Positions 1-35,049 of a stretch of DNA of 64,000 nucleotides are shown piece by piece (within the stretch, counting starts at the first letter, position 1; every line of letters begins with the position of its first letter). The notes under the pieces are model-generated. The model searched no databases and was not told the DNA's origin. It was given only the letters and a program-made list of their open reading frames with translations. Location: NCBI GenBank assembly GCA_963924565.1, contig OZ004607.1, forward strand, positions 6,944,001-7,008,000. Reading direction: 5' to 3'. The position numbers and the translations under genes were made by a program. Source of the DNA: Ascidiella aspersa (taxonomy: Eukaryota).

Positions 1-3000
1 GTGGATGGTAGCACGTGCGTCCAATCGTTTATTAACGCTTCGACCAAAGTAAACACAACAACTATGATCTGCGCTGGTTACGAATCGGGTGGCAAGGATG
101 CATGTCAGGGTGAGCATACTGGATTATTGATTTTCGACTTTTGATTTCGTTTTACGACAGACGTCAACTAGATCAGTGTTTCTTAATCAGGTGAATGGTT
201 CACCCCAGGATAAATAACATTTTTGCAGGGGTGAATACGGGTAAATGGATGGTAGCTTGCAAAACAACCGAGGTCATTTTGTGCTGTTATATATAGACGA
301 TATAGTTTTATCATATCATGAGACAAGGGGGCAATGACATCTGGAGATAGATGCTGGGGGTGAACAAAACTAAAAAAAATTTAAGAAGCACTGGACTAGA
401 ACAAGACACGGAGTGCTTTGTATAATGTTGTAAAACGAGCCACAATGGCTCAGTAGCCTTTGTCAGTATGAAATTTCTTGCACTTAAATTTAATCAAGGG
501 CGAAAACAACTTTGAATCTTTTTTGCTCGTAGTTTCGTCAAGCATGACTCAGGCTTGAGTCTCTCAACGGAATTTGTTGGATTTGTTGGATTGAGTTTAG
601 GCAAAAGGTTTTATGTCGTTTTGTCTACAGCATTACTATAGAATCTTTCCTCAAAATAGCGAAATATGTAACTTTATGTTTGAGGCTTGCAAATTTGATA
701 ACTTAGAATAAATTTAATATCCATATTTTGGCTTATACTTTGAAATACTTCAGACCTCGTGCCTTTCAAAATGTTCATTTGTTATAGCTAACTTTGTTCC
801 AACTCTCTCACGACCGAAGTGTACAGGTTAAACAGTCGACCAGCCGAGAACTGCCAGGTTTGCCTCAGGTGACGAAGACTTTATTTCGTATAGGCGACTC
901 GGGTGGTCCGCTGGTTTGCCAAAGATGCGAAAACTGTGACTGGTACGTGGCAGGAGTAATCTCGTTTGGCCAGGGCTGCGGCGTCGCCGGATATTACGGA
1001 GTCTACACCAATATTAACTATTTCGAGGACTGGATCAAGGATACGATTGCCAACCTAGCTCCGAAGAAATATGCCACCTGTACAAGAGCAAGTAAGTGTC
1101 AGCGACGTACAGTCGTTGTTGTCACGTCTATACGCTGACGTTATGCGAACCTAGCTTGTACTTACACTTGTTCTTGCAATTCGCAAGAAGTCGACTAATT
1201 TAGGAAAGGCTCAAAAGGCGCTTTATTTCTTTTTTTTAAGGTGCTACAATCAGAGTTTTACGAGTTTTTGGTTGGGTTTCACCTTTAACTCCAAAAAAAT
1301 ATTTCTATAATTTTGAACGAAATAGCACTAGTATAACCATCGTCTCACTTGTTTATTGGCAAATCGTTGCACTACCCTTGACTCTTAAAATTTGTATTAA
1401 GGCAAAGTTTCTCCAAAACAAAATGCACTAGTCAAGTTGTAAACCTGGTGTAGTATAGCTGGTCTTTCATTGCTTATTTTAAGCTCAGTTGGCACGGCAA
1501 ATGTTTTTCGCGTTTCATCCTTTTCACAAGATTAAATGAGTTTAAAAGCGTTTAGGATTCGGAAATTTAACCATACAGTTTTCACAAGTTCAGGTGCACC
1601 GTCGATGGTTACACCGCCCATTATATACATTTGATGGTTACATCGCCAAATATATAGAACTTGTTACATCACCAATATTATACATGTATCGTTTAATTCT
1701 TCTTTTGCTAAAATATAATAACAATTGGAAGAACACAGCAATTTACACCTTTAATCGCCCAAAGGAAGACTTGCCCATCTAAGTGTCCACTTTTCGTTGC
1801 AGGTTGGTCAGACTGGGGCGACTACACAGCCTGTTCAAAGACCTGCAACTCGGGTACCCAGTCGAGAGTTCGTCACTGCCAAGGAGGAATCGTCGGCAGT
1901 GTCGGGTGCATCGGCGCCGATTTGGAAACCCGGGAATGCAACGTCAACTCCTGTGACGCTAGTAAGTGTGACTTTCTATCATAGGGTATAATTGTTAACT
2001 CTGATCATATCCACTATTGTGCCCTATAAACGTTTAAATGTGTAAACTCGAACGATTAATTATGAGCAATAACTCAACGAAAAACAAAAACATATAGGCC
2101 GTAAGCAATTGTTAAATTTCTAAAAATTGTCGCAAATAACAACTTCATTACTAAATGTTTTATGAAGACAATGAAATTCAACCCAAGTTATTTGACTCTA
2201 TGACATTTCTCTACCTGCTTTAACTCGGAGGTGGTAAAGATTCCTGTTATTCAAGGATTTTTCTCATTTCTTATCTTGACATCTTTGATTCGAGGTAAAG
2301 CTACCTTGTTCATTACTCACGCAAACCGGTCATTCACAAATACCAAGTTAGTGTCAAGCAAGTCTTTTCTATCCAAGTCAATCTCCAGTCCAAGTTATTG
2401 CTATAGCAAGTCGATTTTAGTTCAATCATTTAAATCTTAGTTAAATGTTTAGTCTAAATAAATTGATGACCGTATGGCCTGAAGTATGGTTGTTTCTCGA
2501 CTCGTTCCCTTCTGAGCCTGCATAGCTCAGTTGGTAGAGCGACGGTCCCTGCTTGACCGGAGGTCGTGAGTTCGAACCTCACTGCAGGCTAGTTGTTTTT
2601 TCTATTCTGCCCTGCTTGCATCATTGATCGACAGATTCGGTGAGTCTGCAATGGCTTTCGGTATACCTTATGGCCTTTAACATTATTTCACAGAGCCACT
2701 ACAAAAACCAAAAAACTGCAAGCTATATTAAAAAAAAATAAAATCAATTGCACAAATTCGCAACATTTATAATGTGTTAAAACACTTAATTTTAATCCAA
2801 GTCGTTTGTCAGATTGACCCAAGTCAAGTCACATTATTTGTCTTACAGACGTAGGTCAAGTCAATTCGGTTTATCCAAAAGACGTAGGTCAAGTCAAGTC
2901 CTTTAAAAACAAAGACTTAATTACACAGCCATGATAACACTGCAAAGCTTTGTCAGCCTTGACAGCATCCAACAATAACATTTACACGACGTTAAGATGA

Positions 3001-16464: not shown

Positions 16465-19400
16465 ATGGCCGCACTCTGTCGTCGAAAAGACAGAAAAACT
16501 TCAGCACCGAACTTTGCAGGGTAAGTCATTAATTAAAAACATTTGACTTGTGCTGTGCTGTGCTGATAAAACTTAACAAACCCGAGTTGCGCTTGTTAAA
16601 AATTATTTGTCTGTTGTTTAACCTGTAGTATCGACTTATGGACTATGTTTCAACATAAATATAAAAGTGAACGCATTAACGAACTTGTGCTGTTAACTTG
16701 GTTCGTTTTATCGCCTCTTTGCCGATAGGCTTGCGCCTTTAATATGCTTGTTTTTATTTTTTTATGACTTGATGAAGCACGGTGATAACAACACTTGTCT
16801 AAATGTAAATACAATATGTTAACAGATTGGCCTTTTACAGTGTCACAGAAACAGTTTGGGTTACTTTAATAATGCGTACGGTCGGCTCTTATCGCATTTT
16901 AAAGTGTTTACGATATAGAATTTTAACGATAGGTTCAGGCGAATCCAGACAAAGCTTAACTTTTGTTTTGACGCAGACTTCTCATAACGATCGGGTTGTT
17001 GTCCATCATCAGCTGTGTGGATGCAGTTTGTCCAGACGGTAAGCTGTTTTAATTTTATTCGGGCAAAGAAGCTGTTTACATCCATTAAACTATTTTCGCT
17101 GGTGGTTTTATGCGTGTGCAAATCCTTTTGAACATAAATTTTAAGCTATAATTCCTAATATAAATAGTTCTAATTGAAATCTTGCATATATTTGGACATC
17201 AGTAAGCTTCAGCTTGGTTTTTCCACTTTAGATCAATATTCCTCGTGGAATTATTTAGAGTAGAGTGTGGGGTGGTTTTACTCTTATTTTTATGTGATTT
17301 TACAGTTCACGATGAAGCTAAAAGTAAAAAGTCTCGTTCAAATTTGTGTTTAACTTAGGAGAAAAATACGGTGACAAAAGTTTTTGTACAGCTGAGGCAG
17401 GTCCTTGACATGGCTGACACAAAATTTATAATTTTTTTATGAACTTTGGGGGTTTATAGAAATGTCATGATGGGTATTTCCCGGGATGTTACCACGTGAT
17501 TTCCGGATTACCCAAAATGGAAAAAATCAAAGCTAAACAAACTCTAATTTTACTACTATATAGATATTTCCCCTAAAGCGCACTAATCATGTCACGACGT
17601 CCTCTATATGAGTGAAATATTCGTGCCATGATATCGTGCAGATCATTTTAATTTTTTTACTTTTAGATCAAGTTTTTATGCTGAATAATAGGTATTTTTA
17701 GTTAATCCGATTTTGAGCTGAATACGAATTAGGGCCTTTAGATTCACAGAACGTTAGATTTTTTTGAACTGTGCAGGTATACCCCTTAGTAAATGTGATT
17801 GTGACATCACAATTTATTCTTCAACCCTTGATTTTAAACAAAAACTCCTAATTTTAAACAAAAACAATATGCGATTAATGTAATTAACTAATGCAAATCG
17901 ACCTTATTCTCTATAACTGTAAGTTTTTATTGTTTTGTACAGCGTCGTATCGACGGGGAAAAGGATGGTTAATATTTTGCCAACTTTAGTTACCCGAATA
18001 CGTTAAATTGTTATACAACTTGCTCAAGCCTATCGCACCTTTTCGATAGAAATTTGAAAATAATAAAATAATATTTATATTCATCTTTGTGGTTCGTTTT
18101 TTAAATACTTTAACACGCGCCTGAAATAGCAAACATCCCGCCAACGCATCAGGCAAACGTAAGTGGGAGATAAATGTGTTATCAGAATTAGGTTTGCCCG
18201 TATACGACACAATAACGTCATGGTATAAGAGACTTTAAAAATTACTTTTCCCGACCAGACTTATGTGCAAATATTCAGGGAAATGGCGAGAGTGCCTTTG
18301 CGCAAAGGGAAAATTATTTAATTTAAGGAGGCGTAACGTTTGTTGACACGATCATTATTTATGCACTAATATTATGGCATTTAACAAGAAACCCAAGCTA
18401 ATACGCCCCTGTACGTATCAGCTGTTTTTATATTGAGAGATATAAATCTAAAAATATATATGGTCCACGAATAAGTTACATCGCATCCATGTCACTACCA
18501 CTGACATTTCATTTAAATCCAACAACTTTAATACTGACAATAGCGAGATTTGGTGAGGACCGTCATGGCGTTTTGGTCTATGTATAAGCCAATACTTGCG
18601 GTTATTAGTTCTAAGAATTCTTAAACGTCACATTGTTTTCGCCTTAATGTAAACATTAAGGTCCTAACACAGCTTTATCGTTTTCGAAACAAAAGTACTC
18701 GTCACTAAACGATTTCGAAGCAAATTTGTGTCAGAAAATCCATACCGAGTATCGCCCGCTTGTTAATCGCAAAAATTACTTTTCGGTAAATCAATGTTTT
18801 GGGCCTGTATAGTGTGCAGGTGGGTGATTGGACGCGGCGTGATCAGGGATTTTTTATACTGCGCATCTCTATACCGGTATATGCATAATTTTGGGCAGAA
18901 GTACGACTGATACCAAAATGACGTTTTTACGTTGCGAAAAAATTAATATCAATAACATTGAAACGTGAAAATGTTATGGGTTCAGGATACTAATTCAAAT
19001 TTTCTATAGCGCTATGAAACTTAGTTTCCTTCCATACTTCCTGAAACGTTTTCTTTTTAAGGTGTAGAAAAAGCTTTTGTGTCTCAAACAAATCAAAATC
19101 GCAACGTTTTGTCTCGAACCATAGATCAAATTCATTATTTCGTATAAGTTTGGCACTAATCAAGTATAGTTTTGAAAGAGGACCGTTTGCTCCGACTTGG
19201 CTTCGGGATTGGTTATAAACCGATATTATCGAACATACCTTTGTATGAGTTCATTAAGAAAGGCACGCAATACTATGCATGCAAAAAACTATATTTGTCA
19301 CTTGAAAAATTCAAATTGCCATCAAACAAAATATTTTGCTTAGTGCAAATGTTAAAGATAACCCCTAGATCTGGTTCTATAGCAAATTGGCGTGGTAAAA

Positions 19401-22400
19401 GCAACCCCATACATGGGGTTAACACTGGTTGTTTAATATATAACTTGTTTTCAGCGAATGATCCTTGCGACGATTGCGCTCCCTGGTGTAAGCAGTACAA
19501 GGATCTATGCAACGCCGAACCCCTAATCAGCACTTGCAGGAAAACCTGCGGTTTATGCCCGTCATCTCAAGGTAATCATTGCACTAGAGTTCGTCGATCA
19601 GGCAGCTGATTTCGCCATGCAGAATCAGGCTTTAACTATATTGTAAAATAGATCGTAAGATTGTAATAGTACTTAAGCGACAATTTCGTTAAGATATGTT
19701 TCCATATAACATCGGAGGGTGCAAATGTTCTAATTTAACATCAAACCTTTTTCCAAAACCAATTCCTTCGGCTGATCATAAGTTTTATGCTACACATCAG
19801 TTATATACAAAACTGATGTTGTTTTTTTGTGTGTGCTAATGGCTTTTTTGGGTAACTTTCGTAACGAGACTTATCTGGTGGCAGACAGATGCTGTCCCAG
19901 TCAATCTGCCTTTTGTACTTTCGGAGTGTTAAAGAGTCATCAACCTGACTATAAAAAACCGAACAACTTTGTGATAAAAAAGTGCTCTGACAATAGGCAG
20001 AAGTGTTCCTACAGAAAAGTCTCGTTTCTAGATTATTGCATTTACCTAGTTTAATTTTTACGGGTTGCATGATTAAAGTGAAGACAAAAAAGTGCAATTT
20101 TAAAGCTAATTGACCCAACTTGTCTACTCGTGTTTCCCGTAGTGTGCAAGGAAAAGAGATGCAGTCAGGAGTGTGTAGAACAGGACAACGGAACAACAGC
20201 CGTGTGCGCTTGTTGGGTCGGATATGAGTTGGGTCCTGATGGTGTCACTTGCAACGGTAATGAAAGACACACGCATACCGGTATATGTGTTTAATAGCAA
20301 CTGTAATCATGCCCCTCGGAAGCTGCTTTTTGACCAACGATTCCTGTATCATAATAGTACACCGAAAGGCCATACCTGATATGACCGGAGGTCGTGAGTT
20401 CGAACCTCACTGCAGTCTAGTTGTTTTTCTATCCTGCCCTTCTTGCATCATTGATCGACAGATTCGGCGAGTCTGCGATGGCTTTCGGTGTGCTATTGTA
20501 AGTTTGTAACAATAAGTTGTAGTCGTAAAATCCCAAACATCCGCAATCCTTACTACAAAGTTTTAAAAATAATTTACTAAAAACTTTATTGCATTTTCAA
20601 TTATTTTTATTCAGTTAATTTAAAACAAAACGTTTGTTCACTGTAACGAGTGCAATAGCCCACTTAGATGAATTAAATGACACATGTAGCCTATACTTGA
20701 GCCCAATTTGCAAAAAATAACCTGACTCATATTTAAGTCTTTGGGGCAAGTGGATCACAGCTGACTTAAATCATTTAAATAACCACTAAACTTTTATTAA
20801 AATCGATTGATCGAATTGATTAGAATGTTTTTAAAGCATATCTAAACTTTTTTCAAGCAACAACAAACATCATTAAAAGTTTAACAAATAATGAATAGAA
20901 ATATCTAAGTACGGTATATATACTCTTTTTTGCTCCTATTAGATGTGAACGAGTGTTTTTTGGGTGTGGACTGTGGCGACAGAATCTGTCACAATATAAA
21001 AGGAGATCACCTCTGTACAGTATGCACAGTTGCTAATCAGCAATTCAGAAACTACTACAATTCGAGTAATTGCTGTATCCCCAACCTATCAGGTTAGTAT
21101 CCCTAAGGCATTCAGCAAATTTTTGTTTCTTTAAATTAAATTGGCAGAACGTATGCCATTAATTTCGCTTTGTCAATGTGATCCAATTATCCAGCTAACG
21201 GTATTGTATTCCGAGGAAATGTGTTGCATGTTATTGCGTATAGTAGAAATCTTTTAAACTAATTATATCTAAATAAATGTGTTGTGATACACTTCGTCAC
21301 TTGCGTTATTCTTCACAGAGCAATGTGGCAAAAGTGTGCCAAGTGGCCGGATTATCGAAAAGAATCTATACTCGAGAAATTGGCCGTGGACGGTAAGCGT
21401 TGAAAATGTGTTGGTTTAAAGATTTTTGCCGGTAAATGTTTTTGTTTCGTGTTTTTGTACCGGTAATGTTTTATGCTTAACTATTGTATTACAAATTTGA
21501 ACTTAAAATTTGTCATGTTTCAAACTTAAACTCGCTTGGAATATCCCATTGTTAAATGTTGTATGATACTGACCATTAACGAGGTTAAACCAAAGTCGAA
21601 AATGTTATAGTTTCTAGCAACCTAACATACAGTAAGAATATTGTTAAATACAGGCGCTTTAGGCTATTTTAAATATTACCAAATGTTAAAACATCTACAC
21701 CAAAGGCAAAGGTAGAAAACAATTCTTACCGAAATTCATGAAAATTTCAGCGGTGACGTCATAAAGTTTAGTCTTAAAAGAAGATCTAAAACAAGTAACC
21801 TTAGGAAACCTGAGGTTGTCGTTCGATGTTGTGTACAGCTGAAAACTTAGTTTACGGAGATGGATGGATAGTCTGCTGTAAAAAGGTCATAACCTTGTAA
21901 AAAAGAACAAAATTAGATCTACTAATACGGCGTATCTGCGCCGTTCCACCATCAGTTATTTAATCGAAAAGCATTGCTTTAACATTTGATCTACGCCATG
22001 TTGGAGTTATCACAATTAACCGACAAATTGATGCTTTATCTTATTCTGCCTATTTGACACAGAAAAACGATACTATGGAAGAAAGTTATTTCATAAACCG
22101 CATAAGTATAGCTTCAATTCAGTAATATTTGTAATAACCGTACCGGTATTTATTAAATTCAAAAATGGAAGTCTGGAAGCAATATTGAATGTGTTGAACG
22201 GCAAATTGTTATATAATGATTGCAAGCCCTTGTACAATTGTTCGCGATGCGATTGATCAAATATTAAGGTTACCCTTTTTCCAGGCTCACATTAGCAACG
22301 GGAGTTTGACGTGCTCAGGAGTTCTCATATCACGCAACTGGGTCGCTTCTTCAGCACACTGTTTTCAGTAAGTTATATAGTATCCTATATAAAGGCAACA

Positions 22401-25400
22401 TTGGTGCTAAACAGATCTACAACTAAAGTAGAAGTAGCTGAAGCGTATTCGCTATTATTATCACATCAGTGCATGAAATGTTTTCGGAAAATGGCATTCA
22501 AAATAAGTCGAGTTGGACAAAAAATAATAAACTGGATATGCTGATGCTGTCAGGCACTGTATCAATTGTAAAGTTGTTCTTTCGGCAGTTAATAATAATC
22601 TGTATAAAAGAGCAACAAAAATATTTTTGAAAACATTTTGAAAACACGAAGACTCCAAATAAGACATAGACTTTAATAAGCAACTAATTTTAGTAAAAAA
22701 ATTGACGTGTAAAGATTTCTTTGACAATATCTTTAGTGATAAGCAAACCTTGACATGTACATATTTCTTTAATTTATTTGCAATACACTTAAAAATGATT
22801 TTGTAATAAAAAATTATTATGTTTTTCGAATATCAGTAATAAACATTTTTTTACTATTTGCATTCCAATTTGAAAAAAATGTTATTAACAGGGAGACGTT
22901 TAAGATGGCTCTCCTATTTTTGACATGTAAAATGTTGTCGGATGCCATTTAAATAAAAATTCGATCATAGAACGACAAAAAATAGAAGAATATGGTAAAC
23001 GATTTTGCGCATTTTGGAAACGATTTTGATTATTAATTTTGACGGCTTGTGACATGACATGGAAATTTTACATAATTTCGATTTGTTTTTGCCAATCAAA
23101 ACATGTTCGTCTTAGTAATCATTAATCACGTGTACATTGGGTGAATGAAGTCATTACCCGTCGGCAGAACATAATTAGGTATTTTGTACCGATATATTGT
23201 TTTTTTGCGTAGATCGATGATCAAAGACTTGAAACAAGTCACAGTTCGTATTGGAATTTCTGACCCGAGCATTGGATTTGTTCACGGGCAAATATTCTCC
23301 GTGGAAGAGGTACACATAATCACGCGTTCGCATATTGATACCTTTATAAATTTTAGTTCATAGTTACGGGAGTAGGCCTTTATGTTTAACAAAAATATTA
23401 ACCACGGGATATTTATTGACAATAATAAAGTCTTTACAACAACAAAAAATAGAAATCTTTACAAGAAACATACGAGAAATTTTGCCAAGTCAGCCGATTC
23501 TCTGTATTTTTTTACTTCGGGCATTTTTGCACTCTTGGCAAACTCTATAGCAGTGGTTCGCAACCTTTTTCTTCTCACGACCCCCAGAGAAAAGACAAAC
23601 GACCCACCCGGGGGTCGCGACCCCCAGGTTGAAAACCACTGCTCTATAGCCTAGAACTTTTTAGTTTTTTACTTTTTAGAAATAGTAGCTTTCCACCTAC
23701 CACTCGGTATGCTCGTGAAACCAAAATCTTTACAAGAAAAAAACTAGAAATGTTGCCAAGTCAGCTTCTTGACTGACACTCTGTATTTTGCTTTCTTCGG
23801 GCATTTTTGCATTGTTGGCAAACCCTATAGCCTAGAACTTTTTAGCTAGACAAATTATTCCTATCGGTAAAACAGTAAAGATTTTTAAACAAATATGAAA
23901 AATTTTTAAATGGCAGTACGTGAGGAATCCGAATTGGACAGGGGTGGCGGCTTTCAACGACGTCGTCCTGCTGCGTCTCTCAAAAGCAGCAATTTACTCC
24001 GATTACGTACGCGCAATTTGTCTCCCCGGCGGGGAAACACCGGTCACAGGAGAGAGATGCGTTGCGACAGGATTCGATATGAGTAAGTGACCAACGTATC
24101 TACTTCAGGGTAATGTGGGGCAGGAGTTTAATGTTTAGTTGAAGTTTCTGACTCTCGCTTTAAGGTTGCTTGAAGGTTGCGTGCGTATAACTCGTTAGCC
24201 AACCACAAGACGTATAGTTTATTAGAATTGTATTATCTGATAAGCGAACAACCAGTTAAACTATAGAAGGCGGACAAGTTAGCATATAGGAGATGCTACT
24301 TGCAATATCAAAGTTGCGAACAGCAAGACGATAACTGAGAAGAAGTCTTTCTTTTACAAGCGGAAGGCGGTCTTAAGTACACAAATCCCTGAGCTGACAG
24401 CACAGAGATAATGCAAGCCAGTAACTACTTTGCACTTTGGAGCGAGTAGGCAATAAATCTGTGGCATAAGCAAATACATCACAAAAGTTACTGTAAACAC
24501 AATCTCTTAGTCGGTAAATTATAGTCGTGCGCTACAGTAACCCTATTTGACTTTATACTTTATTGGTATTGCAACTGGCATTTGTGAATTTTGTCCAAGC
24601 CGTACATTTTAGCCTAATACTTTGTTGCCATAGGACCGGGTTGAATGATTTATGACCCGACATATAGGACACATTTAAGTCACTCTTTTCAAATTACTTG
24701 ACCTCACTGAAGTATATACGACCAACAACTCGACTCTTTTTCTGAATAAATACAATAAGTATTCTATTACCCCAACTGTGTCTAAGTTTCCAGCTTTTTT
24801 TCAGTTTTCGACATTTGCTAAGCTAACTAGTTTTTTTGGAAATAGGGTAATATCGTTTATTACAACAATCTAAAATTTATTTTGTAATACAAATGACATG
24901 TGCTTGACTTACAATGGCAATGTCTTCTACTGGGGCTGGACTTGCACTGGTATTATAGGTACTTCGCAAATTATTTGCCTTATATTTAGTCATTTTAAAG
25001 CGTACATTCAGGCTATTTCTGTTCTAAGGCAATTCAAATCAATTTGTCAGCCGTTAACATTAGGTTTCCTATTAGTATATTTCAGCAATACCATTTCGTA
25101 AAAGTGGCTTGTTTTGTCCCCCTTCGGCCCTAGATCTATGGTTGCAAATGTTTAAACATTTATTGTGGAAATAGGTCAGTTTGTAAACAAGCTACAATGA
25201 CAAATGGTAGTTTTTCAATCGGAACAAGCTTGGAATTTTGACGAATAATGGTTGAAGGCTGTAGTAATACGTAATAAGAATATCAAAGGCATATAGAAGT
25301 AGGAAACATTTTGAACGTTTCGAAGAACTCTTTATACGTTTTCAACATCGCATGAAAGTGTTTTGGTAAAACCTGTAAGAGGCAGCTACTTTTTAAATTA

Positions 25401-28400
25401 TGCTCCTTAGTACAACAATACACTGTTGCCTGTCAATGTCAGTGACTTTTTTCCGCAGAGTTTAACCCACTCCAGGCATCGTTTCCGATCGTGGAATCGT
25501 CGACGTGCAGCTACGGCCGGGCCGATCAGGGTTCTAAGATTTGCGGCGGGCTTCAAAACAGGACTGGAGATGACACATGCCAAAGTAAGAATAAGCTGCC
25601 ACCAGCTTTGCTTCAGGCGCACAATTTTCACACAAAAACGAACTTGCCGCGAAATGTTGGGAAGCGTGAAAGCACTTAGCTAAGATGCTTTTGTCGTTTT
25701 CTGACAGGCGATCCGTGAATCATCGGTAATGTTTTTAAATTGGATACATTTTGCTTGCGTTTCAGAATAAGGTTTTGTGGGCAAAGCTAAACAAATTCCA
25801 GAACTTTTCCTGGTATACGTTGCACGAATCTGTAATATAGCTTAATATTGAACTTTAAAGCCAACAAATCGAGTAAATCGACATCATATTGATAAAACGT
25901 GTATCATCGCAGTTAATTCCTCAAAAGCTTTACAATTATTTTCTTCAAAGCTTTCTTAATATTAAACCTCTGAATAGACAAAGTACCAAAAAATGATGTA
26001 TTAACGTTGCATAAGGACAGGCTAATGACCTGATCAGAGATTATATTACAACGAAAATATCCCTGCGTGTACGCCACAAGGACATTGCTGATAATAATAC
26101 TAATGTTTCACCTCAAACAATAAGTGGCCAGCACTAAAAACGCTACACAGGGCAAAAACGAAACACAGCATTTAAGCCTGATTTCCACATATAACCAAAA
26201 CTTTTTATGCTTAGGCGTTTCAGGTCCCATAGAGTTTAACTCCTTATAGCAAGATCTTATTGCTATGGCCAGGGATTCTTAACAGGGTCCGTGAAAATCT
26301 TGGGTTTATCTGCACTAGTTTTAAGGGGTCCATGAAGGCTAAATTGAAATCTGGGTGTAACTTGAAAAATAAAATTAATTTTTTTAAATAAAAAAAAAAA
26401 AAGTAATTTGCTGTCTTCTCCTAAATATACTTATACTTCACTTTAGCTTTACATTTGTTAGACCAAAAACAGCAGGTTTCGTAAGTCTACCTGTTTTATG
26501 ACGTCATGTTCTGACGCCATCTATAGTAATTCCACGCCTACCCTTTTTTACGTGAAAAGAAAAAAAAGTGTTTAAGAAGCCCGCATTAAAAAAAGTTGAA
26601 GAACCTCTGCTTTAGGCTTAAATCGATATATAAATAAATTTGATGCTCTTCGCAGTCGCGCCAGGCGGTCCTCTAGTCTGTCAGCGCTGTTCTAACTGCG
26701 ACTGGTACCTTGCTGGCGTATCCTCGTTCGGCAGAGCCTGCGGTTCCAGCAGCGATCACCAAGCCTACTCAAGCGCCGAGCAAATGGAAAAGTGGATCAA
26801 CGGGGTTATCAGCGTTCCGGGGACCACCAAGTACGCCAGCTGCCAACGGGGAGGTACGAAATAATGGCCATATACAGCAATTTGACTTGTACAACCGCCT
26901 GATTTGTGTCCTCATTTTTCAGTTGTTAACGAGATTCTTTATGAAAACTTTAAGATCTGTAAATGGAGTTTAGCTCACAATTTATAAAGCCATTAGTAAT
27001 CTGGTGATAGTTGAGTTTGAGTAGTTACTTTGGAACTATAGTATTAGTTTATAGAAATAAGGATTGGTTTTGTAAACATGCGCAGAAAAAAAATTGCGCC
27101 TAAATGGTAAGGCCTTTCTACCCCAATAGTTATGTCAGACTTACAGGCGTCATTCCAACATGTTTCTTATATTTTTTGCCGTTAACTTCTTTCAATTGAA
27201 AATGAACTCCAACTTCCAAATTCGTCATTTTGCCACCTTTCAATCCTCACTATACCAACTGTGTGCGTGGCTGCGAATTTCTAACGTCAAGTTTCACTTT
27301 TTCGCGCAGCGTGGACGCCCTGGACCGAATGGAGCGAGTGCTCCGGGCGATGTATCAACGACACCGTGGCGCAGAGCGGCTCGCAGACCCGTCAGCGCGA
27401 ATGCGTTGGTGCTGCTGTGGGCAGCGTTGGCTGCGTGGGATTAGATCGCAATCTGCGGCCCTGCAACTCGTCTTGTCAGAGTAAGTGGCGTTGGGAATGC
27501 AAACCAAACATCGGTTTGCCTCGATGCTTAAGTCGACCGACTTGTTCCTCCTAAAGGCATCACAAAAAATGTTTGTGTTATTTTCTTAACGCAAAGAAGT
27601 GAAGTCGGATTCGTTTCTAGACTGCTAGTTTGCCTATCTCTCATAACTGGGTTCTGCAGCATCTCATTGTTTTTTCAGTGATCACCAACTAACAGTTAGA
27701 CCTACAGGCAAATTACATGCTATGTCCATTGGTAAATGAGACTTTATTGTGGCAAATAAATCATTAAAATGAAACGTATTATAAAATACTTTATTGGGCA
27801 TACAACTCATGCTTTTTAATGTTCACGGGAATACGAATTTACTGATTTTTAAAACAGATTATTTTCATAACCCAAGGAACTGTAGTCGGATTTGTTTTTG
27901 GCTGCTATAGTTGACCAATAGCTCTTCAACTCATAACTGCGTTCTGCAGCTTTACCAGCGGAACGTTTTTTTAGCAATGTGTACGAGCTACGGGCTGGTG
28001 AAAATAGCGAGATAAATACAGCATCTTAATTTTGGTTGTCTTGAGGTTAAGCGCGACTGACACAAACCCTAACTAATTGATACATGTATATTGTCCCAAA
28101 AGTTTTTTGCAAAATACTTAATAATTTAGGCGAATTCTAAGTCATTTAGGCTTCTGGCTTAACGTGGTCTTTCAATTATTTTTTTGTAAAACTGGGTACT
28201 TACCACAATTACTTTTTATTTTACCATTCAATTTCGAGAACTTGACTTGGAATTAACTTGCTACAGCAATGACCTGAATTCGGACTTGACTTAGCAATAG
28301 TTGAAAATGACTTTGATTTAATAATATGTCAAATGACTTGCTTACAACACTAACGCAGGATAGACAGCGTGTAATCTCCATTTTTATTCCTAAACTTTCA

Positions 28401-31400
28401 CAATATAATGCAATATAATATTGGTGTTAGGCCGTTTAAAAAATAGATTAAAAAATAGGTTTACCATCCTGAGTTCAAGTGCCGTAATTTTAGTGTGACC
28501 TTTAGATTTCACAGCTTGGACTCCGTGGGGCGCCTGTAGCGTTCAGTGTGGCGACGGGGTAAGGAACAGAACCCGGGACTGCCCGGGGCCGTGGGCTTGT
28601 GCGGCCGACGACCACGGCACCGAGACCGCCCAACAGGTACCCTGCCGCCTGGGGGACTGTCCCTGGAGCAACTGGGGCGACTTCGAACCTTGCACGGTTA
28701 CTTGTGGAACTGGAACGTCAACTCGAAGGAGGTGAGCGTAAAAGCGTGGTGCGTCGTTTATTTAGTGTAGGCCAGGGGTTTCCAACACGCGACAAATGTG
28801 GCCCGCGACTTTATAAAAAAATGTCACGCAAGCCCCCCCAATTAGTTAATTTGTTATTCAGCCAATTACCAAAAAATGCTAAATTGTTATACAGCCAAGT
28901 ACCATTGTTTATCCAAGTGCCATTTGTATGTTGATTTTTCACTCCACCCTATTGCATAGGCCTAGATTTATAGTTCCGAATTTTTCGTTTTAAAAAATGT
29001 AGGTCTGGATTTTTAAAATGTAGGCCTGCTGGATTTACAATTTACAACTTTGCCTGACTTTCAAAATAATAAATCGTTACCGCAGGTTTTCAGGTCGCAG
29101 TGTTTCTCAACCCATGGGTCGCCAACCCGTTTGATTCGGTTGCTTCTATAAGCAAGATATTTTGGGGCTCTTTTTTGTTTTGCTATTTAGAAAGTAACGC
29201 AAAAAACAAAATAAAAATCTACAAATCCCGCACTCCGCAGCGCATATTATTTGGGTGAAGGTTCGGGTTTGAGTTTGGGTGGGTCAAGCATTTTTATTAA
29301 CAATAAGTATAATAATACTTGACCCACCCAGTCCCAAACTCGAACCCGCTCCTTAACCCAAACAATATGATATGTGTTGCGATATGCGGTATTTATAGAT
29401 TTTTATTTTTCTGCGTTACCTTCTACATATTAAACCGCAATTGAGCCCCAATGTTTTACATATTGGGAAACTTCCAAGCTATGCAAAGAAAGTGGCTCAT
29501 ACTTGAATTTATTGGTCGCTCAAACAGTTCAATGAAGTAGATTGAGTTAGCAATGCCTCGTTTTATTACTTTTAGCAGACAGCAAAAAGGTTGAGAAACA
29601 CCGCTCTTTAGGGTGAGCTTGTCAAATCGTATTTTTCAATAGAAAACTTGACAAAAAAAATACATTTTCAACCTAAAGACCGTATATAGGTAACTGAGCT
29701 TTTCCAAAGATCAAAATTTTTATTTTGGTTGGTATGTTGTGAACATATTATGTTATGTTCGTTATTTTGCCATACCACACAAGTTTAGAGGTTATTTAGG
29801 CTATTATCATACTAATCAACTTATAGTATTATTTATAGCTTTTTATGTGTTTTATTTACTTGATGTTTGGCTTGTTCTGGCATTTTATCAAAATCTTAAT
29901 CTGGCAACCCTGGATAGCATTCACATAATTATATAACTTGGTTGGTGTGAAGAAACAACAAGCAAAAGTCAACTCACCGACTAATACTTAGATGCAGTAA
30001 TGTGCAGTTTCTAAACTTTGGAACGGGAAGAAGTTATGAGATAAAAATTGGCACTTCGGCATGTTGAGTGGGACCCCCTGTTGCAGGCCCATCACTGCTG
30101 CTGTAATGAAGTTAGAACAGGAAACTACGTCCCGCCAGATCTGGCTCGCAGACCTAATTTTTTATCGTCCCTCAAATTTTATTTAAAAAGATAAGGTACA
30201 GTCAAACAGTTGTCGGATACTTAAAATCCCAAACTGAATTTTGAATGAATTATAAACTAAGCGACATTTTATTAAAGCTAACTTCAACAATAATGAAGTT
30301 AATAAATGTTGACACCAATTTTCTATCAGGCCCGCGATCCTTGATTTTTAGAGTTATCCGGCCCGCAAAAGTCAAGCCTTACAGCCATCAATCCCTTTAT
30401 GAAAATAAAAACTTTAGTGACCCCTGTGTTAGGCTTACGGAAACTACAGCAGCGCAACTATAAGCGGTAGTTGATTTATTGACGACTTAAAATGTATTTT
30501 TGTAAGCCTGAGGTAGCCTCCCGTATTTTTGGCACTTTTTGTGCTGTGTTGTAGTGGTGGTCATTTATTTGCAAAGAGCGGATAAAAGCGGTCATGTGAT
30601 TAAACTAACTATCAAAGGTTATCTATTGATATCCTCTGTAAGGCGAAGCAAGATGAACAAACATTTTTCTTAATAGCAGTTTATAGCGTTTGTGCTCTGA
30701 AGTATAGTCTGCAACACGCATAAGCCGGGTGTTCATACGGAACCCATTTACAGTACTATAGGATTCGCTTAATCCCAGGATGCACAACTTGCGGCCGTTG
30801 ATTACTGTATAACTTTTGCAGCCGTGCCCTTTCAGTTGCAGTTTTGCGCACGAGTTCGTAAGAGAACAGCAGGTGTTTTTAAGTTTAATTGTCTTATGGC
30901 GTCAGGTTACGATGCAACTCTAAGACGTATAGTCTCTAAAAAATTCTACTGGCGGCCGTGAAAAAATAAAGACTGTTATTGTGACGACCAATAGCTATTG
31001 AAGTCCTTTTAACCCGGGCAACTCTATTCGCAGGACTTGTAACGCGGGCGTGGGCCAGTGCGTGGGCGTCGACCACTACTCACGGCCGTGCAAAAGGCCT
31101 AGTTGCGGCCCTTGTGGTGGGAAGGTAGACAATGGTGGTACCTGTAAGGACTACGCTAATCTCGGATTTTGTGCCTCTGAACAGGGTGAAGTTGAGGGCC
31201 TTTGCGCCCTGACTTGCTGCGAAAGGACAAGTAAGTTACCTGGCGCAAATGTTTGTTTTGTACTGCCTTTGTAGAATTTAAAAACATCACACAAGTTTTG
31301 GTTAAGGTGTGATTAATCGCAGCCGACGTGATACGCTTAGGCCAGATGGTAACTTGGGGACAATTATGAAAATTGTTTTCGGTTGTTTTAATCATGAGTT

Positions 31401-34400
31401 GATACAGCATTCTTAATCGCAAATGCTTGACGTAGGAATTATGGGCGCAGAACAAAATAACCAGCAACTCTAAGTGGAAGGAGTTCCCTATATAGTTCTC
31501 ACTGACCCATGTTTATAGTTATACCCTAAATTTGTTCTGGCGTGACAAAAAATACAAGTTACTTGTAGTAAAGGTCAAAAAAAAAAATATTAGTCGTAAT
31601 CATTTTTATAATCCCCAAATTATTAGCTTACCCTTATTTACAGTATGCGAACCTACTGAAGTAACTTGTGTCGGGGTTGTCAGCGATGGTCTATTTAAAA
31701 GTTTAAAGCGGCAATATGTACCATATTGTTCCCTCTTTTTCTTCAACGTTTGGCCGAAATATTCATGAAGGGCAAGTACGTTCGACTGAGAATTATAGAT
31801 TCCGATGGACAGTATACGATTTCAACTAAAAGCATTATTAGTGATGTCTTAACTCATCAATAAGTCATTTTTACACAGCAGACTTGGACAATTCAAAAAA
31901 TCATGGGCCAGGCGCTTTTAAACTCTTTCGTCGATGTAAGTAGATTCAAAGTTAAAAAACAAAGGCACAGTGCGCGTTTTAAGGCAAACTAGATGCTGTG
32001 ATAATTACAAGGGCGCAGCTAAACTGTTCGAGAAATAGCCTGTCGCCTGAGTGATAAGCACATCTAACCGTTTTAAAAAAGCACTTATATCACGATGAAT
32101 ACTAAAGTTCAACCCTGATAACCCTAACATAATAAAGTTCAACCTTGTTTTACAGTATTCAGCCAGAAGTATATCCTCTTTTTTTTAAATGAAATAAAAA
32201 AACAGACCTTTTCATTATATTGCCTTTTCGCTTTCGTACGTTCTTTGATAGGTTCATTAACTAACATACTACGAAGAAAACATCACTTTTTACCGTACAC
32301 TGCGCGTGTTTTCTTTCAGTATTCAGCTCGTGGGGCGGTTGGAGCGCATGCGACACAACGTGCGGTCCTGGAAAGCGTTCCCGAAGTAGGTCGTGCCCAG
32401 CGGCGCCGCGCGTACCTTGCCAAGCCGACAGCGGCGGCAGTTCAAGCCTACAAACAGAGCCGTGCAACCTGGAAGCATGCCCTGTCGTTTTCAGCTCTTG
32501 GTCCTCGTGGAGCGACTGTAGTGTGACTTGCGGCGAAGGGGTTAGTAGCAGAACCAGGGTCTGCCCGGAGCCGGGAAGCTGCCAGGCCGACGGACACGGC
32601 GTCGAGACCGCCCAGGAACGGCCCTGCAAACTTAGCTACTGTCCCTGGCGACCGTGGGGCGCTTTTGGCCCCTGCTCTGTCACGTGCGGCAGTGGAAGGA
32701 AAATCAGGAAGAGGTAACGTGTCGTTGGCGTTAAGCAGGATTTTTATCGAGCTGTGTGTCGCGACAAACTAGTGTACTTTCGTAAGACTGTCAACCGTGC
32801 CGCGAAACTTTTTGTAATTTAAAAAAATAGGGTTTTGGATGGATAGTCATTAGTCATGCACGAAGGGAGGTACGGCGCGTAGAACACTATTCATTTGACG
32901 ATTAATAATTTATTAAGACACCTACATCTTGCTTCGTGTACACACTGTACATAAAGGGCGTTTGTAAGTTAGATATTGTTGTTTTGTACAGGAATGTGCC
33001 GCGAATGTTTGGCCTGTTAAGGACACGCGTACATACGTTTATACGATATTCGTGATATTTAGAATATAGTGTTCATTCAGTTCACATTATGTACAATCAA
33101 GTTGTTACATATTGTATGATAACTTTGCCAGCTTGAAATAGACGATTGTTTTGTTATGTATGTGGTTTGGTGTGATTCTTAAGTTTGCCATTCTACTGCA
33201 TTTGCTTTATTGGGAATGCGTGATTGCACTTTTGGTAAAACATGGGTCTGATACACAACATAAAATTAACTTTGAAACAAAAACCAAGAAAATGAACGAT
33301 TTTACATAAAACGATAAACTTTCGGAATTTTTTTAAGGTTTTCAGTGCATTAAGTTTACCAGCATTAGCTGGGTGCGAAGACATTTTGCTTTGCATAATG
33401 CACTTAGTTTGTGCACAAAATGCCATTTGGGAAGATAACGAGCATTATCGTTAAGCGCGTTTAAAAAAAAATTAAACCTAGGAAAACATGGCACAGTTAG
33501 ACAAACACAGATTTACCCGAATGTCAAAGTGTTTTCCTCTTAATGTGGTGTTATTGATGAGCGGTTGTAGACCCTCTTCTTCACCAAAAAAGGAAAGGGT
33601 CTACGTTGTTTTCACATAGTAACAGCATTGGATCAATTACATTAATTCAGTTGAATTACAATTACAATTACTCGCTTAAATGTTTCAATTACAATCACAT
33701 TAAAAAACTATAATTAATTACATTAATTACAATTTTCGGCATTAAAACTTAAATTTTCTCAATATCAATGTATTGAGCTAAAAATTTAGTCAACAATTAG
33801 AATTACACAGAATGAAAATGCTTCAATTACATTACAATTAAATTAAAACCTGTAATTAATTACATCAATTAAAATATTCGGCGTTGAAACTCTTTTTTTT
33901 TTCAATAATCAATGTATCAGCCAAAATTTTAGCAAATTACAATTACACAGAATGAAGATGCCTCAATTACATTGCAATTACGGTACATTGAAACCTGTAA
34001 TGTGAATTAGATCAATTACAAATGTTCCAACTCTGCATAGTAGGCTAAGACAGTTTTGTTTTTGTAAAGGGTGTGCAGTTCCGTAGAGGGAAGTTGTTAC
34101 GGCGATGAAACAAGTGCCGAGCCTTGTTACCACGATTCTAGCTGTTTATGCGCCGGCACACGCGAAGATATCTACACCGAGTACTGTCCGATGTACGCTA
34201 AGTTCGGCTACTGCTGGATTTACAAGTCGTTCATGACCGCCAAGTGCAATCGCACCTGCTGCCTGTATGAAAACAGTAAGTAGGATTTACAAGATTTCGT
34301 AAATTGCGTGAGCTTTTGGTGTTTGTTTGTACTTCGCTGACTCATATGCATAGCACAAAATTCGTGATACCTTGAATTTACGGCTACATTTGTAATTCTC

Positions 34401-35049
34401 GTATAAATTGGTTCAGCATTTGTACGCCTTGTGCGCCTAAGGCTAAGCGATCATCAGTGTTATAATATCTTCGACTTCAACGTGATCTGGGAACATTACC
34501 CATCGTCACTCACTTAATGTTCCTAATTTGAGTTAAATTGCTCGTACAAGACAAATAAAATTGTGTCTTTTCGTACAAAGTGGTGTATTTGCGTACCTGG
34601 GCCTGCAAAAGGATAATGTTCAACAAAAAAAATATGTTTTTTGTCCAAAAACGTTCTAATTGGTCAAATTATCTAGTTAAAACATGTGTTTGCCTGATTT
34701 TACCAATTGGCAATTGAAACAAAACGGCCAAAAGTCAAAATAACACCTATTGCACTAAAGCAATGCGGCTTACGACGGCGACGGCGGCAAAACAACTCAG
34801 CTATTCTCGAGTTCAATTGACTGTTAGGAAAAGCAAAACTAAAAATGAGTTGTGCTAGTCGGTAGCCCGACGCCAAAGTTTAGTAGTTTCAGCATTTTAA
34901 ATTCGTTTTTTCTAGACCTGGACTTTGCCCGGTCAAGTACCTGTGTCGACGAGTGGCCGGAGATTATGTGTGCCTACTTTTCGGTCGACTATTGCAACAC
35001 AGAAAACATGCGGATGTACTGCAAGAATACGTGCAACCATTGCGCTTGA
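16465..35049 (+). CDS. Secreted catalytically inactive serine protease homolog: SP-ShK-EGF-cbEGF-trypsin(dead)-3xTSP1-ShK-3xTSP1-ShK-ShK, 856 aa (gene B)
   Basis: 17 exons: 16465-16520, 16977-17038, 19455-19571, 20143-20256, 20943-21092, 21319-21392, 22285-22367, 23213-23309, 23917-24082, 25459-25584, 26656-26853, 27310-27480, 28506-28731, 31034-31230, 32320-32713, 34070-34275, 34916-35049 (TGA). 2571 nt, open frame. Signal peptide ...LLITIGLLSIISCVDA; CRKTCGLC ShK; DVNEC cbEGF; R-IIEK activation site; SAHC and NDVVLLRL retained; DTCQ-IAPGGP replaces DACQ-GDSGGP. Confidence 0.92.
20351..20499 (+). mobile_element. tRNA-derived repeat, copy 2 (internally deleted, ~22-bp TIRs)
   Basis: TGACCGGAGGTCGTGAGTTCGAACCTCACTGCAG and the tail match 2554-2663. 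Flanked by ATAATAGTACACCGAAAGGCCAT / ATGGCTTTCGGTGTGCTATTGT. Confidence 0.75.
23551..23641. mobile_element. 91-bp hAT-type MITE
   Basis: CAGTGGTTCGCAACC / GGTTGAAAACCACTG; perfect TSD CTCTATAG; the empty site is visible in the adjacent duplicate near 23823. Confidence 0.85.
26270..26609. mobile_element. hAT-type MITE (GGGGTCCATG family)
   Basis: CAGGGATTCTTAA ... TTGAAGAACCTCTG; internal similarity to 53949-54295 in reverse orientation. Confidence 0.6.
28773..30080. mobile_element. Nested MITE stack (outer hAT MITE; inner 29098-29603; innermost foldback 29164-29449)
   Basis: Outer CAGGGGTTTCC / GGGACCCCCTG with TSD GTGTAGGC/TTGCAGGC. Inner CAGTGTTTCTCAACC / GGTTGAGAAACACCG. Innermost long palindrome GGGGCTC...GAGCCCC. 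Confidence 0.62.
33623..34035. mobile_element. MITE with internal (C)AATTAC arrays
   Basis: TSD CATAGTAA/CATAGTAG; ends CAGCATTGGA / TTCCAACTCTG; internal AATTAC repeats with a duplicated unit. Confidence 0.62.

Follow-up and report, generated by a model that had tools for sequence, protein, structure and literature searches.

A putative secreted S1A pseudoprotease in a tandem cluster of sp4-like genes of Ascidiella aspersa

Results

Gene model and domain layout

The window analyzed here, a 64,000-nucleotide stretch of Ascidiella aspersa DNA, contains gene B, which stands third in a tandem cluster in which the other two genes, Z and A, retain the catalytic triad (Table 1). The N-terminal exons of A are located upstream of the window (locus L026), and intron phases are identical in Z, A and B. 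Gene B was modeled as 17 exons encoding 847 amino acids, with all 16 introns being GT-AG and with no internal stop. The product comprises a predicted signal peptide (hydrophobic residues 19-37 being the sole segment with a mean hydropathy above 2), an ShK-like module, two EGF modules, a trypsin-fold domain, six TSP1 repeats and three ShK-like modules. The Pfam scan, which covered 13 of the 17 exons, returned only ShK, EGF, Trypsin and TSP1, with no clip or kringle domain. The second EGF-like exon has no Pfam match and aligns with the EGF of relatives, while copy 1 of the TSP1-TSP1-ShK-like module shares 56% identity over 75 amino acids with the module that closes A. PF00089 was above the cut-off in two exons and slightly under it in a third, and the trypsin domain is 33-42% identical to those of A, Z and P0001. 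By this match and by its disulfide framework, gene B is assigned on sequence to peptidase family S1A.

Table 1. Features of the locus, in window positions.
Feature	Position	Strand	Evidence or remark
Gene A, final two protease exons (1-109, with its start upstream of position 1; 894-1091)	1..1091	+	Asp189, GDSGG, Gly216, Gly226 intact
Gene B, whole model	16465..35049	+	3 junctions with contig support, remaining junctions predicted; secreted pseudoprotease predicted
Start codon and predicted signal peptide (exons 16465-16520, 16977-17038)	16465..17038	+	Gene model; beyond the region covered by reads
N-terminal ShK-like module	19455..19571	+	Pfam ShK E=0.0011, slightly under cut-off
EGF-like exons (20143-20256, 20943-21065)	20143..21065	+	First: Pfam FXa_inhibition above cut-off
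Cys1 linker and activation site SGR/IIEK; Arg15 (21348-50) and Ile16 (21351-53) retained	21319..21392	+	Sequence alignment
His57 exon (SAHC; His57 22357-59)	22285..22367	+	Pfam Trypsin above cut-off
Protease exon 3	23213..23309	+	Gene model; intron phases as in A and Z
Asp102 exon (Asp102 23959-61), terminating in Gly140-Phe-Asp142 (GFD; Asp142 24076-78)	23917..24082	+	Pfam Trypsin above cut-off; loose end of X3 contig
Asp189 exon (Asp189 25572-74), 11 codons less than A/Z; final base opens Ile193	25459..25584	+	Contig and alignment
Pseudo-active-site exon: Ile193 (split 25584/26656-57), Ala194 (26658-60), Pro195 (26661-63), Ser214-Phe-Gly216, His225-Gln226 (26757-62)	26656..26853	+	Spliced contig and alignments
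First TSP1 repeat	27310..27480	+	Pfam TSP_1 above cut-off; 26853/27310 junction in X3 contig
TSP1-TSP1-ShK-like module, copy 1 (exons 28506-28731, 31034-31230)	28506..31230	+	Model and Pfam
TSP1, module copy 2, last ShK-like module, stop (exons 32320-32713, 34070-34275, 34916-35049)	32320..35049	+	Model and Pfam

Transcript evidence

In run X3, one spliced contig connects 25584 with 26656 (GT..AG, depth 27.9, 126 letters on the shorter side), and positions 193-195 therefore read Ile-Ala-Pro. Both the junction and the replacement of Gly193-Asp194-Ser195, which an earlier note on this DNA had proposed from the genomic letters, are thus confirmed. The same contig carries the 26853/27310 junction, its loose end agrees with the exon whose last base is 24082 (24082/25459), and over the two exons it differs from the assembly only at 25551, where Leu becomes Phe, and at 26666, a silent change. 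A further X3 contig piece covers 32320-32711, with about 30 loose letters at either side. Contigs of X1 and X2 also span codons 193-195 with no listed change there, and these codons are identical across divergent haplotypes. A private allele is ruled out by the same codons appearing in contigs of X1, X2 and X3, three runs of a single study among which the source sample may itself be present. In raw RNA run X4, a few first-mate-minus reads fall on gene B exons, and no junction reads of the gene were found in the approximately 6% of the run that was read.

The earlier note had also pointed to an alternative GDSGG exon inside intron 25585-26655 as what could overturn its reading. The three forward frames of this intron contain neither an AG-NN-Asp-Ser-Gly acceptor nor GDS, DSG or SGGP, and the reading of gene B stands; a mis-spliced active protease is ruled out by the observed junction together with the GDSGG-free intron. 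In-frame AG acceptors are present at 26665 and 26677, and use of the former would place a Ser right before Gly-Pro-Leu-Val-Cys. Activity by way of such a splice form is, however, very improbable, as the junction observed is at 26656 and as use of 26665 would delete three residues between Cys191 and Pro198, with Asp194 still absent and the Ser misplaced.

Active-site residues

All residues listed by the earlier note were found where it had placed them. Pro195 leaves the catalytic triad incomplete, and with Ile193 and Ala194 it leaves neither the Ile16-Asp194 switch nor the Gly193/Ser195 oxyanion hole; given Ile-Ala-Pro at 193-195, gene B is predicted to be catalytically dead. His57, Asp102, Asp189 and the Cys framework are retained, as had been claimed. 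In the S1 pocket, Asp189 and Gly216 (within Ser214-Phe-Gly216) are kept and Gly226 has become Gln, so the full Asp189/Gly216/Gly226 set is lacking; the His-Gln assignment at 225-226 holds in a register without gaps against solved enzymes. Occlusion of the pocket by Gln226 is predicted, with Gly216 still present, and the retained pocket residues may have a structural reason. A and Z possess Asp189, Gly216 and Gly226, and Arg/Lys specificity is thus predicted for both.

Two of the proposed lesions need to be qualified. The R-IIEK start is present as described, but non-GG starts are found in intact members as well, Gly18 being absent from 6 of the 41 other alignment rows, gene A (RILKG) included. 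Likewise, GFD does stand in place of GWG, but Phe141 is not a change; most family members have Tyr or Phe there, and the true change is therefore Gly142Asp. An additional lesion had been overlooked: exon 25459-25584 has 126 nt, whereas its counterparts in A and Z have 159 nt, and the codons that it lacks belong to the 140s autolysis loop and to the 170s loop.

Selection and age

Between gene B and A, pS is 0.747 (saturated) and pN is 0.403, and it should be considered that dN/dS for this pair averages over both branches and over the time preceding catalytic loss. The residues kept between the two are enriched in Cys and Trp, with all 13 Cys and all 5 Trp of A retained in B. When A's domain was randomly substituted to the 42% identity that B has with it, as a neutral-decay control, 1 of 5000 replicates was stop-free and none of the 5000 kept all Cys. 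As these Cys and Trp are kept despite saturated synonymous sites, we infer that the ORF is under selection, and its preservation, claimed earlier, is borne out by the 17 stop-free exons and by this control. The low read depth in X4 and the lack of an ortholog in the protein collections searched might suggest an artefact of assembly or a pseudogene that is transcribed; either is scarcely credible in the face of a 17-exon open frame, the 1/5000 outcome of the control, divergent haplotypes carrying the same codons and the existence of a spliced contig. The B branch is approximately 2 to 4 times as long as that of A (1.09 vs 0.49 in one tree, 2.43 vs 0.55 in another), which is consistent with relaxed constraint. 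The 8 within-species exonic changes, of which 4 are silent, are too sparse for a selection test.

The description of the loss as long fixed was not borne out. The A-B split is old (pS 0.75), but no ortholog was found that would date the catalytic loss. Exon 26658-26852 gave 1 match in the 90% protein collection, to an active Styela protein; exon 23917-24081 yielded no ortholog among 18 candidates; a HMMER scan of representatives gave no match above 61% identity; and one search of metagenome contigs returned nothing. A 10-residue metagenome match was rejected as chance, since the contig bearing it is GC-rich and has no other protease exons. P0147 (Pro195) and P0127 (Gly195, with A as its best match) were weighed as possible orthologs, and B lies outside their five best matches.

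Origin and family

Gene B is probably, on sequence, a tandem duplicate of its neighbor A or of A's ancestor. For five of its six non-protease parts, A is the best match among four own-genome loci; for the EGF pair, L007 is slightly ahead of A (38.5 vs 36.6 bits). The terminal module common to A and B has one TSP1 fewer than in Ciona and Clavelina relatives. The protease-domain tree alone does not settle the origin: B groups with A at 80 (FastTree) and with older dead members at 86 (IQ-TREE), AU tests reject neither placement (p 0.64 and 0.73), and the trees used were quick and FastTree trees for which 14 rows had been taken out and 14 others brought in.

Gene B falls in a 13-row clade with A and Ciona sp4 (support 89-90), and by its CQRxxxCxW insert, its architecture and its clade it is placed in a tunicate sp4-like EGF-trypsin-TSP1-ShK family, delimited here from database names, as a formal definition was not found. 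Ciona intestinalis sp4 (Q8T3A0, NP_001027687; P0089), named 'putative coagulation serine protease', has the architecture of B (signal, ShK-like, EGF, trypsin, TSP1 repeats, ShK-like), and the two have in common a CQRCxxCxWY insert, with 35% identity across 755 aligned residues. Whereas sp4 has IVGG, GDSGG and Gly226, B, whose loops are shorter, lacks Gly193, Asp194, Ser195, Gly142 and Gly226. Further members are C. savignyi H2ZIH0, Clavelina LOC143446070 and Styela 'hemicentin-1-like' and 'adt-1-like' proteins. Literature searches brought up no functional study of the family, and the sections available of the Botryllus coagulation paper (PMC2527998) and the Oikopleura house paper (PMC3390340) do not describe it.

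Dead members are common, Ser195 being absent from 14 of 78 sp4-family matches, and the Ascidiella aspersa genome has further dead members; a profile search, which favours GDS members, was left out of this count. Dead members include Clavelina LOC143446071 (P0139, GEI) and P0167 (GDG), Styela XP_039258341 (P0182, VNT), P0147 (GNP) and, in the own genome, loci L003 (GES) and L007 (GDG, His57 to Asn). Like B, these belong to one family and fold and have lost catalytic or switch residues with frames kept open, although the substitutions differ. By locus number, P0139 comes after the active LOC143446070, as B comes after A. L003 and P0139, however, form a separate clade (99) that has lost Arg15-Ile16, which B keeps, and none of the named dead members is an established ortholog of B. 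As dead members recur in the family, gene B is less singular than the earlier note implied.

Discussion

Gene B is very probably a pseudoenzyme: with a triad residue replaced and an intact spliced ORF, it qualifies by sequence as an expressed, selected S1A non-peptidase homologue, and the earlier claim stands in this form. As its protease part lacks the catalytic serine, the product is likely not an enzyme but a secreted protein with a binding role. The proposed zymogen-like state is judged sound, as Ala194 leaves the activation switch without its acidic anchor, and loss of acidic residue 194 is described in the available part of PMC13194640 as disabling that switch.

The mechanism that we tentatively put forward, with a little less than an even chance of being right as a whole, is as follows. 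Tandem duplication from an ancestor of A would have given rise to B, the domain of which, lacking Asp194, would stay zymogen-like with Arg15-Ile16 either cut or intact, the Cys1-Cys122 bond keeping the chains joined. The EGF, TSP1 and ShK-like modules would tether B in the extracellular matrix or mucus that also contains its active siblings; there, the dead domain would bind a protein partner (a substrate, an inhibitor or a sibling protease) and so modulate or scaffold proteolysis as a secreted binding or decoy protein. Such roles have precedent, as S1 pseudoproteases serve as ligands, cofactors, decoys or scaffolds (PMC13194640, in part).

Alternatively, the dead domain could be a mere folded spacer, in which case B would be a structural protein of tunic or mucus, or an adhesive one, and its EGF, TSP1 and ShK-like modules would be what selection maintains. 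This would agree with the alteration of activation switch, autolysis loop and S1 wall alike, with the long branch, with the duplicated C-terminal module and with the Cys- and Trp-rich set of kept residues. We nonetheless regard it as unlikely, since His57, Asp189 and Arg15-Ile16, which are surface positions, are retained, and since module number varies freely in relatives, so that a useless 250-residue, six-exon domain could have been lost.

B might instead be a cofactor switched by cleavage, in the manner of arthropod clip-domain homologs or HGF, with a sibling protease (A, Z or another) cutting SGR/IIE and the cut form binding and activating a partner. The earlier note had suggested A as the cleaver; on sequence, Z and about 10 other own-genome loci with GDS at 193-195 are equally candidates. 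Arg15-Ile16 and the Cys1-Cys122 pair are indeed kept, a basic residue precedes position 16, A and Z are predicted to cut after such residues, and B has Arg-Ile while the four other Asp194-less alignment members (L003, P0139, P0162, P0182) all lack Arg-Ile/Val. Yet the usual switch cannot follow cleavage with Asp194 absent, and the three other degenerate members with Arg-Ile/Val (L007, P0167, P0201) keep Asp194. Cleavage-activated S1 homologs usually keep Asp194. Moreover, two adjacent residues kept at 42% identity are unremarkable and co-expression of A and B is putative, which together make this reading improbable, even though clip-domain homologs do require cleavage (PMC6901238, in part). 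More speculative still, and a long shot, is that enzyme-pseudoenzyme pairs repeatedly born by tandem duplication (A-B; LOC143446070-LOC143446071 in Clavelina) form a tunicate extracellular protease cascade, in which B would be a cleavage-gated partner of A with a switch independent of Asp194, a chordate counterpart of arthropod clip-protease/homolog modules.

As S1 pseudoproteases are common, B alone changes little; judged by sequence, it is an expressed S1A pseudoprotease that adds to a known pseudoenzyme class recurrent in its family. Automatic annotation would wrongly label it a trypsin-like protease, and a family named 'putative coagulation serine protease' often loses catalysis, via many different substitutions (14/78). 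With saturated synonymous sites between neighbors, A and B offer a clean test case of a pseudoenzyme gaining a role beside its parent.

Several known systems resemble B in part. The vertebrate S1 pseudoproteases PRSS23 and PRSS35 likewise have Ala at the Asp194 position, a dismantled switch and secretion (PMC13194640, in part); their accessory domains differ, PRSS23 keeps the triad and lacks Ile16 whereas B keeps Ile16 and lacks Ser195, and its likeness to B is known at the fold level only. HrTTSP-1, an ascidian sperm type II transmembrane protease, is described in the available part of PMC9265791 as a 337 kDa protein with an N-terminal membrane anchor, ricin-B domains and a C-terminal protease domain; identity with B is ruled out, B having 847 amino acids, a central protease domain and no ricin-B match in the 13 exons scanned. 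The cnidarian trypsin-ShK and trypsin-TSP1-ShK proteins present the domain pairing of B, and Nematostella trypsins keep the triad in 61 of 72 cases and lack it in the remainder; as trypsin-ShK pairing is argued to have arisen repeatedly (PMC6767649, in part), this likeness is probably convergent. Finally, arthropod clip-domain serine protease homologs, HGF/MSP, protein Z and haptoglobin, like B, are modular secreted proteins whose S1 domain is non-catalytic, and act as cofactor, ligand or scaffold (PMC13194640 and PMC6901238, each in part), although clip, kringle and Gla domains are absent from the exons of B that were scanned.

Pseudo-active site of gene B

The protease-like domain of gene B, a predicted secreted protein, is encoded by six exons, with intron phases (0, 2, 0, 1, 1 and 1) that are the same in its upstream tandem neighbours, A and Z. 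Residues follow chymotrypsin numbering, with motifs aligned via the Styela protein P0001, itself alignable to solved prostasin, and also by direct alignment of exon 26658-26852 with solved enzymes. A phase-1 intron interrupts codon 193, which encodes Ile; the next two residues are Ala194 and Pro195. This reading, proposed in the earlier note, was borne out by a contig from sequencing run X3 (1175 letters, depth 27.9) that matches the window in three pieces (25459-25584, 26656-26851 and 27308 onwards), joined at 25584/26656 (GT..AG) and 26853/27310; its loose end is the end of the fourth protease exon. The X3 library type is not on record, and we took it as RNA because the contig skips introns exactly. 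Within the fifth and sixth exons it differs from the window only at 25551 and 26666, and thus represents a different haplotype that carries the same residues at 193-195. Contigs from X1 and X2, which belong to the same study as X3, also span codons 193-195 with no listed change, the X2 haplotype carrying many intron differences. A private allele, one way in which the observation could have failed, is therefore not what these haplotypes show. Neither was an alternative catalytic exon with GDSGG found on the + strand of intron 25585-26655. In RNA run X4, from another study, the approximately 6% that was read gave no junction rows and few reads on B exons. Further in-frame AG acceptors lie at 26665 and 26677, just within the pseudo-active-site exon, and were unseen in the contigs. 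The observation of a disabled domain is confirmed, while its interpretation is partly supported.

Protease exons of gene B, repeats in its introns and other degenerate loci
Feature	Position	Strand	Remark
Protease exon 1	21319-21392	+	
Protease exon 2	22285-22367	+	
Protease exon 3	23213-23309	+	
Protease exon 4	23917-24082	+	
Protease exon 5	25459-25584	+	
Protease exon 6	26656-26853	+	
Repeat	~20380-20490		resembles tRNA-derived SINE; also at ~2518-2660
Repeat	~23550-23645		inverted ends, MITE-like
Repeat	~24150-24520		
Repeat	~25245-25340		
Repeat	~29600-30065		
L003	G000:C1:23259867-23262233		
L007	G000:C1 ~219200-222000	-	

The fifth exon is also 33 nt shorter than its counterpart in A and Z, leaving the autolysis loop much reduced and the 170s loop partly deleted. 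Among 42 aligned domains (39 rows picked from 120 proteins, plus three of our own models, from a GDS-biased search), B alone lacks Gly142, Asp194, Ser195 and Gly226 together. The earlier note had also counted GFD for GWG and IIEK for IVGG as lesions. These residues are changed and Gly142 is gone, but close relatives have Tyr or Phe at position 141, and of the 41 other rows 6 have no Gly18, which makes GWG and IVGG unsuitable as baselines.

Gene structure and origin

Gene B is modelled as 17 exons spanning 16465-35049, with GT-AG borders at every intron and a stop-free frame of 847 residues; read alignments spanned all but its two 5' exons. A hydrophobic stretch (residues 19-37) is followed by a ShK-like domain, two EGF-like domains, the trypsin-fold domain, TSP1, TSP1-TSP1-ShK-like, TSP1, TSP1-TSP1-ShK-like and a last ShK-like domain. 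Pfam, with 13 of the 17 exons scanned, gave six TSP1 stretches, two ShK matches slightly below the cut-off and no match for the two internal ShK-like exons. The X3 contig extends from the first TSP1 exon into the intron (27481-27869), where read-through would extend the frame by 24 codons before reaching a stop; AATAAA lies at 27755 and ATTAAA at 27763. The extension may represent a short isoform containing a single TSP1, or an intron left unspliced. The high-copy repeats in the table have very high depth.

The + strand carries Z (IVGG, GDSGG), A (ILKG, SAGHC, GDSGG) and B in head-to-tail order, with identities of 42% (B-A), 35% (B-Z) and 48% (A-Z). When B's six parts outside the protease domain were compared with four loci of the same genome, A was the best match for five, and L007 was slightly better for the EGF pair. 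In A and B the terminal module is the same and, compared with that of C. savignyi H2ZIH0, Ciona sp4 and two Clavelina proteins, one TSP1 shorter; B carries it twice. These matches and the shortened module favour B being a lineage-specific tandem duplicate from A's ancestor. Protease-domain trees, in which B has a long branch, conflict: one joins B to A (support 80), the other joins B to older dead members (86), and AU tests do not decide between them (p 0.64 and 0.73). Upstream of the window (L026 ~6700-6980), A seems to lack B's second EGF and to have a Ser/Thr-rich exon preceding its protease domain.

Over 240 codons, B and A differ with a saturated pS of 0.747 and a pN of 0.403, and 11 of 45 fourfold sites are identical. 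Every one of A's 13 Cys and 5 Trp, and 15 of its 24 Gly, is conserved in B. When A's domain was mutated at random until identity fell to 42%, the frame stayed open in 1 of 5000 simulations, and none of the 5000 preserved the full set of Cys. The frame of B, and probably its fold, are therefore maintained, a result that does not date the loss of catalysis.

Degenerate members of the family

The window (G000:C1:6944001-7008000) is part of a 309-Mb genome, and the named close protein relatives are all tunicate (Ciona, Styela, Clavelina), which points to an ascidian as the source. There were 243 representative matches at an E value of 0.001 or less, and 150 of them were listed. Of those 150, 91 bear the signature of the sp4-like EGF-trypsin-TSP1-ShK family and 78 cover positions 193-195. 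Ser195 is absent from 14 of these 78 listed matches (two being the same Clavelina exon, and many single-exon fragments), replaced by Gly, Ile, Ala, Pro, Thr, Lys or Glu; one further listed member keeps Ser but has lost Asp194. Two unnamed ENA fragments from other genomes, P0147 (Pro195) and P0127 (Gly195), are possibly independent losses or B orthologues. In the same genome, at least two of the best 14 loci, B and L007, lack Ser195, with L011 unassigned. L007 has Asn57 and Gly195, keeps Asp194 and Arg-Ile, and falls in a group with the likewise dead Clavelina P0167 and the active Ciona LOC100178279. L003, in the same set, keeps His57, Asp102 and Ser195 but carries Glu194, reads SFE in place of GWG and is missing the Arg-Ile site; TSP1 repeats follow. 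It pairs with Clavelina LOC143446071 (support 99), which means that one or more of the degenerate lineages are old; L003 probably represents a long-standing zymogen-locked lineage and could arguably serve comparison better than B. At G000:C1:38.02-38.08 Mb, another member with Gly215 is present in three near-identical tandem copies (L010, L012, L014). B is one of several dead members of the family.

Possible roles of gene B

In S1 proteases, loss of Ser195 removes the nucleophile, and Pro195 with Ile193 removes the oxyanion hole. Ala194 takes away the anchor of the activation switch, so that the domain is predicted to stay zymogen-like. The zymogen-like part of the earlier idea of a long-fixed pseudoenzyme is supported as a prediction. 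PMC13194640 describes this switch and sorts S1 pseudoproteases by role: ligands, cofactors or decoys, and scaffolds.

We rank first, at slightly below an even chance, binding or a decoy function beside the active siblings. That the domain is a mere spacer within a matrix protein seems rather unlikely, and a cleavage-gated cofactor somewhat more so. For the cofactor speaks that, among eight degenerate members with an aligned N-terminus, only B combines lost Asp194 with kept Arg15-Ile16; three with Asp194 retain Arg-Ile/Val16, and the four others lack both. Clip-domain homologs, according to PMC6901238, require cleavage. Nothing singles out A, the suggested cutter, over Z or another paralogue.

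Relation to known systems

The named member of the family is Ciona sp4 (P0089), a "putative coagulation serine protease". In the main texts of mostly open-access literature, we found no published study of the sp4 family or its dead members; this tunicate family is poorly studied, and catalysis is often lost in it. By its sequence, gene B encodes a true S1A serine protease homolog and adds one case to a kind already known: PMC9265791 notes for the ascidian HrOvochymase a protease domain lacking the triad, PMC6767649 reports trypsin-TSP1-ShK proteins and non-catalytic trypsins in anemones, and PMC13194640 reports Ala194 in PRSS23, as in B.
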